Part shown: in pieces, positions 4,725 through 33,536 of the stretch
How the letters are laid out: every line of letters starts with the position of its first letter
Numbering within the stretch: the stretch's first letter is position 1
The notes under the pieces: generated by a model
Told to the model about the DNA's origin: nothing
The model's database searches: none
Seen by the model: the letters and a program-made list of their open reading frames with translations, nothing else
Made by a program: the position numbers and the translations under genes
From: a virus
Taxonomy: Duplodnaviria > Caudoviricetes
Direction: 5' to 3' (one strand)
DNA length: 64,000 nt
Virus record (IMG/VR): IMGVR_UViG_3300037313_000659
Span: 5,085-69,084 of that record

Positions 4725-5122
4725 AGGGAGACTCCATCCCTCGACGCCAGTCGAAGCTCGACCCCATTCGTGGTCTTGCGCTTCGGACCAGGACGCCGGT
4801 CGGGCTTCGGATGCCTGACCTGCAACAGGACCGCGGAGACCTTGCGCTTGGTGCCGTCGAGGAGCTCGGCGAACAGGTCGACCGCCTTGACGTTCGCAAG
4901 CATCGGCTGTTCGGCGCGCAGCTTCTCTTCGAGGGCGATCTGCACCGACTTGCTCGACAGCTGGACGAACCGGCCGTTCGCCGGTGGCGGCGTGTCCTCG
5001 ACCAGGGTCTCCGGCGTTGCCGTGCCGCCGCAGTTGTTGTTCGGGCAGTAGGCGCCCAGGACCGGCGCATGCTGCATCGGGGTGCCGCACACATCGCAGG
5101 TTGGTTCGACGGGGACGCCCAT
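4721..5122 (-). CDS. Zn-ribbon hypothetical protein
   Basis: CDVCG...CPNNNC near the N-terminus; TAATG coupling at 5122. Confidence 0.6.
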   Translation of the reverse strand: MGVPVEPTCDVCGTPMQHAPVLGAYCPNNNCGGTATPETLVEDTPPPANGRFVQLSSKSVQIALEEKLRAEQPMLANVKAVDLFAELLDGTKRKVSAVLLQVRHPKPDRRPGPKRKTTNGVELRLASRDGVSL

Positions 5123-27954: not shown

Positions 27955-29169
27955 TCAGCCGAAGACTCGCTGCGCGCACTGGCGAACTGCTTCGGCCTGG
28001 GTGTTGTCCAGACGGTTGATGTAGGCGAGCTCCAAGCCCCGCACGAACTGACCGCCTTTGACGGCACCGAGGATGGTCGAGCGGACCAACTCGCGCGTCG
28101 AGATCGGAAGCGACAGTTCGCCCTTGCCATACATATCGCGGATGCGACCGGCGACATCGACCATCTTCTCGGCGATCTCCTGCGGCACCTGGATGTGGCT
28201 GCGCAGGATCTTCACTTCGACCTCGGCCGGCTTGTAGTGGACCTGGATGGTCACACCGAAGCGGGAGTAGGCTGCAGCGTTACCGATCTTGGTTCCGCTG
28301 TAGAGGCCCGTATCGTCGCCGGAACCGTTCGTGTTGCCCGTCGCGACGAACCGGAAGTTCGGATGCGGCTTCACCAGTCGCTGCGAGGGCGGCGCCTCTT
28401 TGATGTAGAGGGGCTTGCCTTCGAGGACTGCCTGATAGACCGCGATCACCGCGGGGTGGGCGAAGTCATATTCGTCGGCGAGATAGACCCAGCCTCGAAG
28501 CATCGCTTCGGCGAGAGGACCATAGTCGAACTGGGTGCCGCCGTCGCGAACGACCATCTGTCCGACGATATGCGCCTCTTCGGTTGTGTCCGTATGCTGG
28601 ACGCGAAGGAGCGGTCGACCGAGCCTGGCGCAGACTTGTTCGATCAGCGTCGTCTTGCCCGTTCCGTGAAAGCCCCATGCGTAGAGCGGCATGTTGAGCG
28701 CGATCGCCATTACGGCGTCCTTGAGCTCTTCGCCGTCGAACACATATCCCTCGTCGAGGGTGGGGATTGCCTCGCGGCAAATGTCGTCCAGCTTCTCCGG
28801 CAACATCACATCGATCATGATGGGGTCGCCCTGCTGCTGATTGCGCTTCTTTGCGGAGCGCATGTTGTCGTCGAGCGGCAGCCCAAAGACCTCGTGCATC
28901 GGCCGCTTTTCCATCGAACCAGGAGCGACCACCGGCAGAATCTTGCCCATCATCGCTTGCGCAGCCTTCGCCTGCTCGACCTTCTGTTGGGTCACAGCTT
29001 CCTGCGCCGCCTCGAACGCCTTCGACCAGAGCGGCGACTGCGGAAACTCCGACTGATAGCGCTCGACTGTGTAGTCAGGATGCGCCTTCTTCAGGTGGTC
29101 GCCGATATGGTGGACCATATCGCCGCAGATCGCACAGGCGATCTTTTCGTTCTTGTTAATCTTCGCCAT
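27955..29169 (-). CDS. MoxR/CobS-like AAA+ ATPase with N-terminal C2H2 finger
   Basis: CAICG...HLKKAH; GFHGTGKT; LADEYD; ATGNT; FG-type sensor; STRELV. Confidence 0.9.
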   Translation of the reverse strand: MAKINKNEKIACAICGDMVHHIGDHLKKAHPDYTVERYQSEFPQSPLWSKAFEAAQEAVTQQKVEQAKAAQAMMGKILPVVAPGSMEKRPMHEVFGLPLDDNMRSAKKRNQQQGDPIMIDVMLPEKLDDICREAIPTLDEGYVFDGEELKDAVMAIALNMPLYAWGFHGTGKTTLIEQVCARLGRPLLRVQHTDTTEEAHIVGQMVVRDGGTQFDYGPLAEAMLRGWVYLADEYDFAHPAVIAVYQAVLEGKPLYIKEAPPSQRLVKPHPNFRFVATGNTNGSGDDTGLYSGTKIGNAAAYSRFGVTIQVHYKPAEVEVKILRSHIQVPQEIAEKMVDVAGRIRDMYGKGELSLPISTRELVRSTILGAVKGGQFVRGLELAYINRLDNTQAEAVRQCAQRVFG

Positions 29170-29261
29170 GATCGTCAATCTCCTCGCTTGTTTCGTCGTC
29201 GTTGTGTGTGTCACCTACTATGCAGGTTCGGTCCTAGCAAGTGGCTTCACGGTGGAAAGTG

Positions 29262-30719
29262 TCAGCCCAGGATGAACTGCTTGAGGACGCCCATCAGCAG
29301 CTTCGGCATTTCATCGACATTGTGGATGACCAGGCTCCGCGGATAGTAACGCGTCGGCCCATCGTGATCGATGCCGATACCGACGAGATCGATGCCCGCC
29401 ATCTCGATCGACTTCACCATGTCCCGCGAGTGCGCGTAGTCGGACTTCTCCTTCGCGCCGGACTGATTGTAACCGAAGCACATCGGCTCGCCGTCCGTCA
29501 TGCACATGAGAATCTTCCGATCTTCGGGGCGCTGCAGGAGGCGCTTTGCAGCGAACTCCAGACCGCAGCCTTCGGGAGTCGAGCCCATCTGGACGTTATA
29601 TTCGTCGTCGAACACGGCAGCGAAGCGCTGCTGAACTGGGATGGTCCAGCGGTCCTCGAACGCCTTGAACCGCGGCACCATGAGCGGCTGCATGCGACCG
29701 ATCGGATGCTGCTTCGACGCCTCGAACGCTTCGTCCTGCCACTGACGGACTTCCTCTTGCGTTGCGCTGCCCTCGGCCCAACCGTCCGCGAAACCGATAG
29801 CCTCGAACGCGATGCCCAGCTTGTTGAGGACGGTCGCGAGCGCATAGGCTGTCTCGGTCGCCAAGCGCAGCGAACCGCCGCTCATGGAGCCGGAGCAGTC
29901 GATCAGGAGGGTGATCGCGGTATTGAGCGACGGTGACTCTTCCTTGCGGGAGAACACGCGATCGTCGCCCAGGCGGATGCGGTGCAATGACGGCGCGTGA
30001 AGCCGGCCGGAACGCTTGCCTGGGATGCGACGAACCTGGCTGCGCGCTGCGATCATGCGCCGCAAGTCCTTCATCAGCGGACCAACAGCCTTCGCAACAG
30101 CCTGGTCGATCGGCTCCAGCGTGGTGCCCTCCGGCACCTTGATGTCGACGAACCCGTCGCGGTCGCGGCTGAACACGTTGAACTGCCCATCGACTGACTC
30201 GTCGACGAACGCCGCGATCTTCGCCTCGAACATTTCGTCCATGTCCTGGATGCTGTCGGCGTCAACGTCGAGGCCAGGGAGATATTCCTCTTCGTCCTCG
30301 ACTTCATCGTCCTCCGGCGGCGAGATCGAGAAGTCCTCTTCGGTCTCTTCGTCGCCACCTTCACCGCGCTCTTCGTCCTCGTCGGTTTCGTCGCCCTCGC
30401 CGGACTGCTCTTCGTCCTGCTCGTCGCCGTCCTCGGAGGTTTCGGGCTCGGCTGGTTCGTCGAGCTCCTCGTCGTCCATGTCCGGCCAGTCGTCGTCCTG
30501 GGAGCGCTCAAGTTCGTCGTCCTCGATGTGGGCGCCGTCCTTGTCTTCCTCCCAGCCGTTGAGCATGTCGTCGATGATCTTCTGGCGCCGCAGATACGCG
30601 GCGACATCCTCGTCGCTCGCGATCAGAGCATCCATGTCCGACCTCGCGAACCCAGGCCAGTCTTTGCTGTCAGGTCCGTAAATGTCGATAATGTCCAGCG
30701 CGTCGTCTGCAGTAAGCAT
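29262..30719 (-). CDS. VWA (CobT_C-like) protein with anti-sigma-like N-terminus and acidic linker
   Basis: MIDAS DCSGS (29883-29900), GSTP, TDGEP; N-terminus IDIYGPDSKDWPGFAR...IDDML. Confidence 0.85.
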   Translation of the reverse strand: MLTADDALDIIDIYGPDSKDWPGFARSDMDALIASDEDVAAYLRRQKIIDDMLNGWEEDKDGAHIEDDELERSQDDDWPDMDDEELDEPAEPETSEDGDEQDEEQSGEGDETDEDEERGEGGDEETEEDFSISPPEDDEVEDEEEYLPGLDVDADSIQDMDEMFEAKIAAFVDESVDGQFNVFSRDRDGFVDIKVPEGTTLEPIDQAVAKAVGPLMKDLRRMIAARSQVRRIPGKRSGRLHAPSLHRIRLGDDRVFSRKEESPSLNTAITLLIDCSGSMSGGSLRLATETAYALATVLNKLGIAFEAIGFADGWAEGSATQEEVRQWQDEAFEASKQHPIGRMQPLMVPRFKAFEDRWTIPVQQRFAAVFDDEYNVQMGSTPEGCGLEFAAKRLLQRPEDRKILMCMTDGEPMCFGYNQSGAKEKSDYAHSRDMVKSIEMAGIDLVGIGIDHDGPTRYYPRSLVIHNVDEMPKLLMGVLKQFILG

Positions 30720-32020
30720 TAAGCGGCACTCCCCATGTATTTCGCGAGATTACGTCGAGCATCGCGGAGCGTTGCTTTGACTGCATTCTCGTCCAAGCCT
30801 GTCTTTTGAGCGATTTGCTCAATCGACTGTCGCTTTTTCTTATGCAGATAAATGACCTTACGTTGAGTGGGATCGAGCTTTTTCAGCGCGTCCGTGATCG
30901 TGGGATTGTCATTACCCTCGTCACCGCCGCTGGTCGGCTCGTCCTGGTCGCCTTCATCACCACCGCCGGTGTCGTCGCCGCCCTGTTCGTCGGAAGAGGA
31001 GTCACCGCCTTCTTCCTCGGATCCATCGTCGGTGCCCTCACCGTCGCCGTGACCTTCGCCGCCGCCCTTGTCGTCGGACTCTTCCTCACCGCCGTCACCA
31101 TCGTCGGCATCGTCGCCCTCGGATGAGTTGCCCTCGTCGTCGCCGGCATCACCGCTGTCGGGTTCGTCGCCTTCTTCCTCGGCGTCGGTGTCGTCCTTTT
31201 CCTGCTTGCCCTTGCCCTCGGACTGCTGGTTCTCTTCCTGCTCCTGATCGTCCTCCGGCTCCTGGTCGCCGCCGCTGCCCTGGATTTCAGGATCGTCGGG
31301 AGCTTCCTCGGCTGCCTTCTCGGCCGCCGCGCGCTGCTGCGGTGACATAGCCTTCAGAACCATGTCCACGATGGCGATCACATCGTCGTAGGTCTCCATG
31401 GACTGGAGATCCTTCGCGAGCGTCGGCATGCGGCTGGTGAGGGGCGTCATGTGCGGCCACAGGTTGTGAGTGTCCATGTAGTTCATGAACGCCTTCTGCC
31501 CCGCGAGCGCGCGGAAGCCGACGACGATGCAGACACCCATCATCTTCGCCGGCGATGCTCCGGCGGCGATAGCCTTCTGAATGTGAACGCCGAAGTAGTC
31601 GTCCATGACCGCTTCATACATGCGCTCAAGATTGTCCTTGGTGCCTGGGAGCTCGCGCGGCAGCAGCTTCTCAAGCCGAATGTCCTCGACGATGTTGAGG
31701 AACTGCCCCTTCAGCTTACGCGCGCCTCGACCGAGGCCGTTGAGCTCTTCTTCCGTCCGCAGGAACGGAGTGAAGAAGATGTGCCCGCACTCGTGATCGA
31801 GATAGCCTTGCATGGCCTCGATCAGGGCTTCCGGCGCGTTGTCGTTGATCTCCGGCAGGACCATGCGAACGACCTTGCCTTTGACCGCGACCACATGCGG
31901 CTTGAAACCGCGGAAGCAGACCTGGACTTGATCGCGCGTGAGCATGCGGACGGTCTTAGCAACCGAGTCACGAAACGAAGTCGCCTTCATCGGTTTCACT
32001 GCGCCCCTGCGTCCTCGCAT
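30719..32020 (-). CDS. CobT_N-like HExxH metallopeptidase with acidic linker and C-terminal sigma-70 region-4-like HTH
   Basis: HECGH (31781-31795), NIVEDIRLE; C-terminus ALKKLDPTQRKVIYL...SIEQIA...VKATLRDARRNL. Confidence 0.85.
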   Translation of the reverse strand: MRGRRGAVKPMKATSFRDSVAKTVRMLTRDQVQVCFRGFKPHVVAVKGKVVRMVLPEINDNAPEALIEAMQGYLDHECGHIFFTPFLRTEEELNGLGRGARKLKGQFLNIVEDIRLEKLLPRELPGTKDNLERMYEAVMDDYFGVHIQKAIAAGASPAKMMGVCIVVGFRALAGQKAFMNYMDTHNLWPHMTPLTSRMPTLAKDLQSMETYDDVIAIVDMVLKAMSPQQRAAAEKAAEEAPDDPEIQGSGGDQEPEDDQEQEENQQSEGKGKQEKDDTDAEEEGDEPDSGDAGDDEGNSSEGDDADDGDGGEEESDDKGGGEGHGDGEGTDDGSEEEGGDSSSDEQGGDDTGGGDEGDQDEPTSGGDEGNDNPTITDALKKLDPTQRKVIYLHKKKRQSIEQIAQKTGLDENAVKATLRDARRNLAKYMGSAA

Positions 32021-32963: not shown

Positions 32964-33536
32964 TTAGAGAGCTTCGAGACACTCCATCAGCTTCTTGTTC
33001 TCGGCGGGCGTCAGACCATCCGGCCGCAGCTTCCTGATCTGCTCGATCATGCCGATCTCGTGGCTGGCGACCCAGCGCCGCGGTGCGTTCTGGTCCTGCA
33101 CGACCTCGCGCATGACCTTCACCTGTCCGATGTTCAGCTCGTCGAGCGGCTTGCCCGCCGTAGCCGCGAGCTCGTCGGCGAGCGCGCTGCTGGACGCCTT
33201 GCCCTTCGGCATCTTCCCCTTGGTCAGGAGACGGTCGAAGTCGATTTCGGGGTGCCGCTGCTTGAGCACCGCGAGGAGAAACTCGTTCGGGTCCATGCCC
33301 AGGTAGCGAGCGAAGTCGACGGCTCGATCGACCGGAATGGGAACGCGACCGAGAGCCATGTGGCTCAAGACGACCGAGCTTTTGTATCCGAGCTGACCGG
33401 CGATGAAGCGCTGGCTCTGGTCCTTTTCTCTCCAGGCACGTTCGAGGGCGTCTGCGAGCATCCGCTGCGCTTCCGTTCCCTTGAGCGGGAAGTCCCCGCT
33501 CTGTGCTTGTCCAGCAGATGCTGCTGCTACTGCCAT
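32964..33536 (-). CDS. XRE-like HTH transcription regulator (candidate repressor)
   Basis: SQRFIAGQLGYKSSVVLSHMALGRVPIPVDRAVDFARYLGMDP; monocistronic with its own terminator. Confidence 0.75.
   Translation of the reverse strand: MAVAAASAGQAQSGDFPLKGTEAQRMLADALERAWREKDQSQRFIAGQLGYKSSVVLSHMALGRVPIPVDRAVDFARYLGMDPNEFLLAVLKQRHPEIDFDRLLTKGKMPKGKASSSALADELAATAGKPLDELNIGQVKVMREVVQDQNAPRRWVASHEIGMIEQIRKLRPDGLTPAENKKLMECLEAL

Follow-up and report, generated by a model that had tools for sequence, protein, structure and literature searches.

In the cellular CobST complex, the N-domain of CobT (CobT_N) is placed on the small AAA+ domain of the ATPase at the periphery of the ring, a finger of the CobT VWA domain enters the pore upon ATP binding, and the two CobT domains are joined solely by a disordered linker of ~90 residues (10.64898/2026.10.09.757910, 10.64898/2026.07.21.739949). 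The domain plan and the Pfam families of cellular CobS-CobT (CobNST) recur in a gene cluster of a tailed phage (Duplodnaviria; Caudoviricetes) that we analyzed within a window of 64,000 nucleotides, namely positions 5,085 to 69,084 of the IMG/VR record IMGVR_UViG_3300037313_000659 (all window coordinates are counted from its first letter). In this cluster the CobT-like adaptor is divided over two overlapping genes, the first ending in region 4 of an extracytoplasmic function (ECF) sigma factor (sigma4) and the second beginning with an anti-sigma-like domain. It is well supported that the junction of a sigma4 end and an anti-sigma start was captured into the acidic linker of CobT, and on balance the two modules probably form a heterodimer that restores the tether between the adaptor halves.

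Intact phage counterparts have been deposited as pairs of phrog_1576 and phrog_249 proteins, such as gp043/gp044 of RHEph10, and are carried by the Rhizobium phages RHEph10 and B1VFA, by SSU5-like phage-plasmids and by Pseudomonas, Stenotrophomonas and Vibrio phages. They share with the window the HExxH N-domain, the acidic linker, the VWA domain, an ATPase with AAA_5 and CbbQ_C domains, and a Cys-rich protein and DnaE downstream. Their adaptor, however, is one chain of 700-840 amino acids without either module, whereas the window encodes two chains with the captured pair.

For the modules themselves, the alphaproteobacterial ECF sigma/anti-sigma operons provide a homologous sigma4, a homologous three-helix N-domain and the same type of overlapping junction; the phage copy differs in that it lacks sigma2, the transmembrane segment and the periplasmic tail, and in that the pieces are fused to unrelated protein halves. 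Binding of an anti-sigma domain to isolated sigma4 has been solved for RslA-SigL (3hug) and RsdA-SigD (3vep), both of which are among the fold matches described below, although RslA has a zinc-binding anti-sigma domain and the phage domain has no Cys/His motif. In the PhyR-NepR pair of the alphaproteobacterial general stress response, a sigma-like domain serves purely as an anti-sigma-binding surface and not for transcription initiation. PhyR, however, keeps sigma2, sigma4 and a receiver domain, while gene 1 of the window is without sigma2 and receiver, and the NCBIfam PhyR profile gave only an insignificant match to the window protein (E 0.009). Anti-sigma factors fused to VWA domains are known from group ECF289 (10.1101/2019.12.11.873521). 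PhyR and these ECF289 fusions are the closest precedents.

Full-text literature searches yielded no description of a CobT or MoxR adaptor with sigma region 4 or an anti-sigma domain, and a literature search on DUF3379 anti-sigma factors yielded no description of the architecture either, which agrees with the first-pass annotation of the window, made from the letters alone, to which no description of the arrangement was known. The reuse of transcription parts, probably as a clasp, in a phage CobT-like adaptor therefore appears to be new to the literature. By comparison with these systems, the phage MoxR-VWA module is the known part; the origin of the split may be called well supported, and the mechanism is proposed.

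The split adaptor and the modules at its break

The first-pass annotation had described two TAATG-coupled genes followed by a MoxR/CobS ATPase; the open reading frames (ORFs) of the two genes and their junction agree exactly with that description, and the ATPase gene follows them. The features of the two adaptor genes are as follows.

32020..30719, minus strand: gene 1, N-terminal half of the split CobT-related adaptor, 433 amino acids
31301..31981, minus strand: zincin-like CobT N-domain of gene 1, with downstream EDIRLE (PF06213; AlphaFold2 (AF2) model)
31781-31795, minus strand: HECGH motif (HExxH) in gene 1
30911..31288, minus strand: acidic disordered linker of gene 1 (from the AF2 predicted local distance difference test, pLDDT)
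about 31022-31060, minus strand: conserved linker motif GEGHGDGEGTDDG of gene 1
30722..30898, minus strand: sigma-70 region 4, an ECF-type helix-turn-helix (HTH), at the C-terminus of gene 1 (PF08281, PF04545, AF2)
30717..30721, minus strand: TAATG stop/start overlap of genes 1 and 2, coupling their translation
30719..29262, minus strand: gene 2, C-terminal half of the split CobT-related adaptor, 485 amino acids
30546..30719, minus strand: anti-sigma-domain-like three-helix N-domain of gene 2, amino acids 1-58 (hhalign, AF2, fold ranking)
30210..30545, minus strand: acidic linker of gene 2 (sequence composition)
29277..29957, minus strand: CobT_C VWA domain of gene 2 with the MIDAS (metal-ion-dependent adhesion site) motif (PF11775, PF00092)

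The two genes have one base in common, the start of gene 2 being the final base of the gene 1 stop codon; an alternative start of gene 1, 10 codons downstream at 31990, gives a form of 423 amino acids (P0005). Gene 1 matches the Pfam family PF06213 (CobT; E 3.6e-9, amino acids 14-297), with a well-folded N-domain in residues 1-230 (pLDDT > 90) and a disordered linker in residues 237-360 (pLDDT < 50). Gene 2 matches PF11775 (CobT_C; E 1.5e-28, amino acids 255-481) and, also above cut-off, PF00092, and its MIDAS residues D274, S276 and S278 are invariant in its family. Against the 729 positions of phrog_1576, gene 1 covers positions 8-373 (E 9.4e-55) and gene 2 positions 319-728 (E 5.1e-80), so that one profile is spanned in succession by the two genes, jointly from 8 to 728, and the ancestor was therefore a single chain, as had been claimed for CobT.

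Genes 1 and 2 thus bring together PF06213, an acidic linker and a PF11775 VWA domain with MIDAS beside an AAA_5/CbbQ_C ATPase, the combination that marks CobT-related phage adaptors. The CobT equivalog TIGR01651 gives only 26.8 and 86.8 bits for the two genes against a cut-off of 759, and the NCBIfam CobS equivalog gives 125 bits for the ATPase against a cut-off of 558; CobN (PF02514) was not found in the record. Since these cut-offs are far missed, CobN is absent and the element is a tailed phage, B12 synthesis is not the function, and by its domain content the locus is a phage CobS/CobT-like machine of MoxR-AAA+ and VWA type and not a cobalt chelatase.

The HExxH motif, which the first-pass annotation had read as that of a peptidase-like domain, is present, but it does not distinguish this locus: 51 of 51 split forms have HExxH together with E[DE]xRxE, and HExxH is present in 88 of 89 intact CobT-related proteins, so it is a family-wide trait with nothing special to the split. 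The fold of the N-domain matches the minigluzincin abylysin (4jiu) weakly, and cellular CobT_N is reportedly similar to peptidase M48C (10.64898/2026.07.21.739949); the N-domain of gene 1 may be a putative zincin metallopeptidase. Within the low-complexity disordered linker that follows, the motif GEGHGDGEGTDDG, often continued by CSGD, stands out. It is also present in the single continuous linker of two intact relatives (P0057 and P0058), and it could serve in binding a metal or in docking. The insert follows it downstream and is located upstream of a D.MF motif that precedes the VWA domain.

That the C-terminus of gene 1 is sigma-70 region 4, as first proposed from the sequence pattern, is borne out by profiles and fold alike. 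It matches PF08281 (Sigma70_r4_2) with 40.6 bits against a cut-off of 25.7 (amino acids 375-425) and PF04545 with 27.6 bits against 24.1, and the isolated 63-amino-acid piece reaches 43.7 and 32.5 bits, respectively. The AF2 model has four helices (pLDDT about 95) and superposes on region 4 of SigL, SigD, SigE and SigR with a root-mean-square deviation (rmsd) of 0.6-1.4 Å over about 57 amino acids, the fit to the SigL sigma4 (3hug) being 0.6 Å over 57 amino acids with 35% identity. Region 2 (PF04542), which a sigma factor requires to bind the core and recognize the -10 element, was not found by profile search in gene 1 or elsewhere in the 69-kb record, and because of this absence gene 1 cannot be a functional sigma factor.

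The start of gene 2 had been likened to the N-terminus of small anti-sigma factors. Its likeness to their YG.D..RWP pattern is real, and hhalign finds homology to the family of proteins encoded directly after ECF sigma genes, here called +1 proteins (Prob 98.5%, E 2.8e-15, 60 columns); no Pfam or NCBIfam profile, including zf-HC2/RskA and antisigma, matches the domain, however. Searches of PDB sequences with the profile of the domain and with that of the cellular family gave no significant match, nor did Foldseek against the PDB with the 60-residue model, and the ESM Atlas offered only a weak lead, a zf-HC2-tagged cluster at 0.87. A word-indexed search with residues 1-60 returned only the protein itself and one 97%-identical copy, and further relatives were gathered via retrieval of neighbouring genes and profile searches. 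The predicted fold (pLDDT 94.8 for residues 1-60) consists of helices 4-14, 23-35 and 37-55. In an exhaustive structural comparison with 48,161 PDB chains the cytoplasmic domain of MucA (8z6g_A) ranked first (Z 5.9, 53 residues, rmsd 2.8 Å), and the anti-sigma domains of RsiW, RslA, RskA and PupR took ranks 4, 10, 17 and 34; low Z scores are expected for a small helical domain, so this match is supportive only. The domain has no transmembrane segment, which its cellular relatives do have, and it is thus not a classical membrane-anchored anti-sigma factor; a zinc (Cys/His) motif is absent too. Across the gene 2 family the conserved 58 residues follow the pattern a.DliD.YGpD..lWP ... F..Yv.d.k.id.mL.nW, after which the acidic linker begins.

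The survey of split and intact CobT homologues that the first-pass annotation had called for revealed a conserved split, with the modules confined to the split forms. About 50 proteins of 380-470 amino acids in a large protein collection share 37-90% identity with gene 1, and the sigma4 HTH closes each of the 51 gene 1 homologues that were examined; the only public name met in this family is 'Sigma-70, region 4', on a Sphingomonas protein. Likewise, about 60 proteins of 419-507 amino acids match gene 2, and 66 gene 2 homologues begin with the anti-sigma-like domain. An outlier of 31% identity (P0166) has the same module pair and is preceded by a gene with CobT-N and Sigma70_r4_2. Local hidden Markov model searches found neither module in proteins longer than 550 amino acids. 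The junction itself takes the form TAATG, ATGA or GTGA, TGAnnATG, or an in-frame stop with a GTG after one further codon; a stop is never missing, all three stop codons are used, and overlap and frame vary. A constant stop in variable type and frame indicates that the split is real and selected, with no conserved frameshift, and programmed frameshifting or readthrough to a full-length protein is, for the same variability, unlikely to be conserved. The presence of the split in homologues from independent assemblies also excludes an assembly artefact. The kept gene order (HTH protein, gene 1, gene 2, ATPase, Cys-rich protein, DnaE) is found on IMG/VR contigs of about 100-110 kb, in a Sphingomonas isolate, in a Novosphingobium isolate and in a Sphingomonas metagenome-assembled genome.

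This conservation bears on the idea that the split is an accident whose halves assemble on CobS independently, leaving the modules as passengers without a role. Both CobT domains do touch CobS separately in cellular CobST, and a clean loss of the module seems to have taken place in at least one lineage. Every split form, however, has both modules, neither of which was ever lost singly in more than 50 sequences, and alignment columns are on average 59% identical in sigma4 and 51% in the anti-sigma-like domain compared with 41-44% for the whole proteins. Selection is visible, at the level of sequence, on both modules, which belong to the best-conserved regions of the proteins even where overall identity falls to 31-40%, and we regard a functionless relic as highly improbable.

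Alternatively, the modules could interfere with the host: sigma4 might, like PhyR, be a decoy that draws off an anti-sigma factor of the host, or the soluble anti-sigma domain might trap a host ECF sigma, and either way host stress-signalling proteins would be brought to the MoxR/zincin machine. Phages commonly target host sigma factors, a sigma-like domain as decoy is established for PhyR-NepR, and the ECF and anti-sigma families of cells are close relatives of the modules. On the other hand, the Sphingomonas and Novosphingobium isolates that carry the element have no other significant match to the anti-sigma-domain profile, and one of the two genomes has no other sigma4 match at E<=0.003. 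The modules are, moreover, always gained and kept jointly and are translationally coupled, which is better explained by a cognate pair than by two baits that act independently. The pair does not look as if it were aimed at a host system, and interference of this kind seems unlikely.

Cellular relatives and the origin of the junction

We searched 401 alphaproteobacterial genomes with a profile of the gene 2 N-domain built from 10 sequences (A2) and obtained matches in 91 of them at a per-genome E<=0.05 (best E 1.8e-9), a count that includes one weak match, in genome G042, on which no claim is built. The 19 best matches were inspected, and all are N-termini of short proteins (137-197 amino acids where delimitable) that read ..LLDAYGADPxRWPEAER..; at nearly all of these loci an ECF sigma gene lies upstream, and its stop overlaps or adjoins the start of the short-protein gene. 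The one upstream sigma that was scanned belongs to NCBIfam PRK05602 (235.9 bits, cut-off 208). An EF-hand protein is encoded upstream at most of the loci, and the +2 protein that was scanned is of PF13801 ('heavy-metal resistance'). The +1 proteins are predicted to contain a single transmembrane helix, their acidic tail is short, and they match the NCBIfam 'antisigma' profile at E 4e-5 with 23.7 bits, below its cut-off of 100. A search of 1.84 billion representatives with the gene 2 N-domain profile gave 149 proteins at a library-wide E<=1e-3, about 130 of which are proteins of 120-200 amino acids with the domain N-terminal; the few that are named are 'hypothetical' or, once, 'anti-sigma factor RsiW'. 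As judged from these profile comparisons, the gene 2 N-domain is a homologue of the cytoplasmic N-domain found in small alphaproteobacterial membrane proteins whose genes come directly behind those of ECF sigmas. The operon context reported for ECF281/ECF290 in the preprint that re-classified ECF sigma factors fits these operons (10.1101/2019.12.11.873521).

The locus thereby points to a large alphaproteobacterial family of small membrane proteins as likely anti-sigma partners of one ECF group, most members with checked database names being unnamed or 'hypothetical'. An operon composed of an EF-hand periplasmic protein, an ECF sigma, the YGADPxRWP small membrane protein and a PF13801 protein is widespread in Alphaproteobacteria (L094-L112, e.g., L101:171-2458). 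In a study of the Caulobacter cabp-sigV circuit the anti-sigma factor was termed unidentified (PMC13171946), and the YGADPxRWP protein may be a candidate for this missing partner.

A sigma4 profile was run over the same 401 genomes and its match positions were compared by hand with those of A2. Among the matches listed, 36 genomes had both a strong anti-sigma-domain match (E<=1e-3) and a sigma4 match, and in 18 of the 36 the genome-wide best sigma4 match was the sigma gene directly upstream of the anti-sigma-like gene, while in several more this upstream sigma ranked second; counting all 56 genomes with both matches, again among those listed, it was best in 24. Of the ten sigma4 matches that scored best overall, three are sigmas with a downstream +1 protein of the anti-sigma-like family (R[FHY]G.D...WP) that is not among the listed A2 matches, one lies in the EF-hand operon type with a weak +1 match, and the rest are FecI-like or PhyR-like. 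Because Alphaproteobacteria hold many sigma-70-family genes, such enrichment supports the capture of one contiguous fragment made of a sigma end and an anti-sigma start, and the overlapping stop/start is typical of the cellular sigma/+1 operons too. The two modules appear, on this evidence, to share an origin. The claim of the first-pass annotation that a sigma/anti-sigma junction was inserted into the acidic linker is supported.

The insertion can be pictured as follows. In an ancestor of the Sphingomonadaceae-phage lineage, roughly 360 bp would have entered the coding region of the adaptor's acidic linker, a fragment in which region 4, from the 3' end of an ECF sigma gene, was joined to the cytoplasmic domain from the 5' end of the coupled anti-sigma gene. 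The stop/start brought along would have cut the adaptor into two co-translated products, CobT_N-linker-sigma4 and anti-sigma domain-linker-VWA.

Some further loci with ECF sigmas near the phage sigma4 (L116, L118 and L120) encode a +1 protein of the anti-sigma-like family and have, by eye, flagellar-looking neighbours; the ORF upstream is possibly FliS-like, and a flagellin-like ORF lies downstream in L119. Rhizobium phages carry an ECF-like sigma between cobS and the Cys-rich gene (L001:8696-9331, gp045 of RHEph10; L002:6369-7013, B1VFA_132), in which Pfam sees region 2 only; this slot is empty in the window and in its closest intact relatives. We considered the breaking up of such a phage-owned sigma as the source of sigma4 and rejected it, as the C-terminus of the Rhizobium phage sigma has no Pfam region-4 match and differs strongly from that of gene 1, and as the closest intact relatives (L010, L011) are without that sigma gene.

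Intact and split forms alternate among close relatives with the gene order unchanged. In quick tree searches based on the C-terminal 300 residues, for which 26 split forms were sampled and P0166 was left out, the split forms and three intact proteins (P0056-58) form one clade with full support. Two of the intact proteins, P0057 and P0058, nest within the split clade beside the split form P0151 (Shimodaira-Hasegawa-like approximate likelihood ratio test support of 97-98, two quick trees), and the approximately unbiased (AU) test disfavours a tree with all 26 sampled split forms as one clade (p 0.029), a result weakened by the fact that the tested clade was defined after the tree had been seen. 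The locus of P0057 (L113:4001-6196) has the gene order of the window and no trace of either module. One module gain followed by at least one clean loss with re-fusion would be the simplest reading of this pattern, and the position of P0057 and P0058 inside the split clade suggests that the covalent and the non-covalent state are functionally equivalent.

A proposed clasp and its alternatives

Since nothing but a disordered linker connects the two CobT domains in cellular CobST, and each makes its own contact with CobS, the linker can be cut without harm provided that the halves are tethered again. We propose that docking of sigma4 and the anti-sigma-like domain would replace the lost covalent link, that the overlapping stop/start would favour equal output of both halves, and that the ATPase ring would, by analogy with cellular CobST, carry CobT_N on its rim while the VWA finger would enter the pore. 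The binding, the stoichiometry and the target of the machine are what we infer in this model.

Several points weigh against it. That sigma4 and the anti-sigma-like domain bind each other is a prediction from homology and solved precedents, which make it the likeliest relation between them. Classical anti-sigma domains usually clamp sigma2 and sigma4 together, and affinity for sigma4 alone is therefore an assumption. The cellular +1 family would be likely anti-sigma factors, putatively so by sequence and operon context. Taken absolutely, the structural matches of the gene 2 N-domain model are weak (Z <= 5.9), and many folds resemble a small helical bundle. The tree evidence comes from quick searches and a clade picked post hoc. 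FecI-like sigmas are among the strongest single sigma4 matches, so that capture of both modules from one operon, though parsimonious, is unproven. In addition, the HTH of sigma4 may have kept the ability to bind DNA or the flap of RNA polymerase, and the halves may dock on CobS independently, so that a tether is perhaps not strictly needed.

The first-pass annotation went further and suggested that the MoxR ATPase pulls the pair apart, releasing a peptidase fusion that binds DNA or RNA polymerase. For this pulling apart we found no evidence, and the alternation of intact and split forms fits a plain tether better. In a regulated latch of this kind, ATP hydrolysis by the CobS-like ring, or a signal, would part the halves, and the freed zincin-sigma4 would act on RNA polymerase or DNA. 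The native role of the module pair is regulated sequestration, the sigma4 fold is intact, and cellular CobST threads the VWA finger of CobT into the ATPase pore, all of which would suit a latch. However, sister phages with the same gene order have intact covalent forms, some apparently derived from split ancestors, so that release cannot be essential to the machine; and with region 2 absent there can be no promoter opening of the holoenzyme type. We consider such a latch quite unlikely, and there is only a slim chance that the pair is a working latch of which the freed zincin-sigma4 docks on host RNA polymerase or on an ECF anti-sigma factor once the ring, or a signal during infection, has separated the halves. 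It would in that event tie an ATP-driven MoxR machine and a metallopeptidase directly to host transcription control.

If the clasp exists as proposed, it would be a natural case of a sigma/inhibitor pair reused as a plain heterodimerisation module outside transcription, and the junction of two co-translated genes would have given rise to it in a single step. In synthetic biology, orthogonal sigma/anti-sigma pairs are already in use as parts. A natural split CobT-like adaptor could also help to tell apart the ways in which the N-domain and the VWA domain engage the MoxR ring.

The ATPase, its neighbours and the target of the machine

The adaptor genes are flanked by the following features.

29214..27955, minus strand: CobS-like MoxR AAA+ ATPase with an N-terminal CxxC...HxxxH zinc-finger-like extension, 419 amino acids
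27270..27851, minus strand: Cys-rich protein between the ATPase and DnaE, 193 amino acids
23878-27315, minus strand: DnaE
32964..33536, minus strand: conserved HTH protein upstream of gene 1, present in all related loci (weak HTH_31/HTH_3 matches in L113)

The surrounding 69-kb record also encodes a tape-measure protein, tail fibres, ribonucleotide reductase, SbcC, primase and DnaB, and the cluster sits in the replication module (primase, DnaB, DnaE). The ATPase matches PF07728 (AAA_5; E 1.1e-18), CbbQ_C (E 2.8e-7) and phrog_249 (E 1e-85). Its N-terminus (28999-29196, minus strand) reads CxxCG...HLxxxHP...Y..(E/K)(F/W)P and is conserved in all related loci; amino acids 7-72 match the Ros/MucR zinc finger PF05443 at a sub-threshold E of 0.01, and the extension may be a DNA-binding zinc finger placed on a MoxR ATPase.

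Such an extension would suit a reading in which the sigma4 HTH recognizes a -35-like element and, together with the ATPase N-terminus, places the machine on phage or host DNA, the anti-sigma-like domain being only an autoinhibitor. The position within the replication module, the Ros/MucR-like though sub-threshold N-terminus, and a recognition-helix pattern in sigma4 like that of presumably DNA-binding cellular relatives are compatible with this. Isolated sigma4, however, binds DNA weakly without RNA polymerase, and the intact relatives manage without sigma4, so that DNA targeting through the modules seems very unlikely to us, and a clasp remains the reading that we prefer.

Taken alone, the split does not solve the old question of what phage CobS/CobT-like machines act on. 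In IncC plasmids and SXT/R391 elements, the Vcrx089-Vcrx090 pair (hde) promotes evasion of type I restriction (PMC7498323). Compared by domain content, Vcrx089 has the same AAA_5 and CbbQ_C pair as the ATPase of the window and likewise acts with a partner on a mobile element, although Vcrx090 has no Pfam domain. By analogy with these plasmid ATPases, the target of the phage machine may be related to evasion of host defence.

The Cys-rich protein, whose N-terminus reads ..GCFGS.LA....(5-6 residues)..C..C and which belongs to no Pfam or PHROG family, occupies the same slot between ATPase and DnaE, with a homologous N-terminus, in RHEph10 (gp046), in B1VFA and in all fetched loci; it may be a third component of the machine. 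Finally, the DnaE homologue in L113 (L113:8146-10196) has a PF03167 (UDG) match at its C-terminal end.

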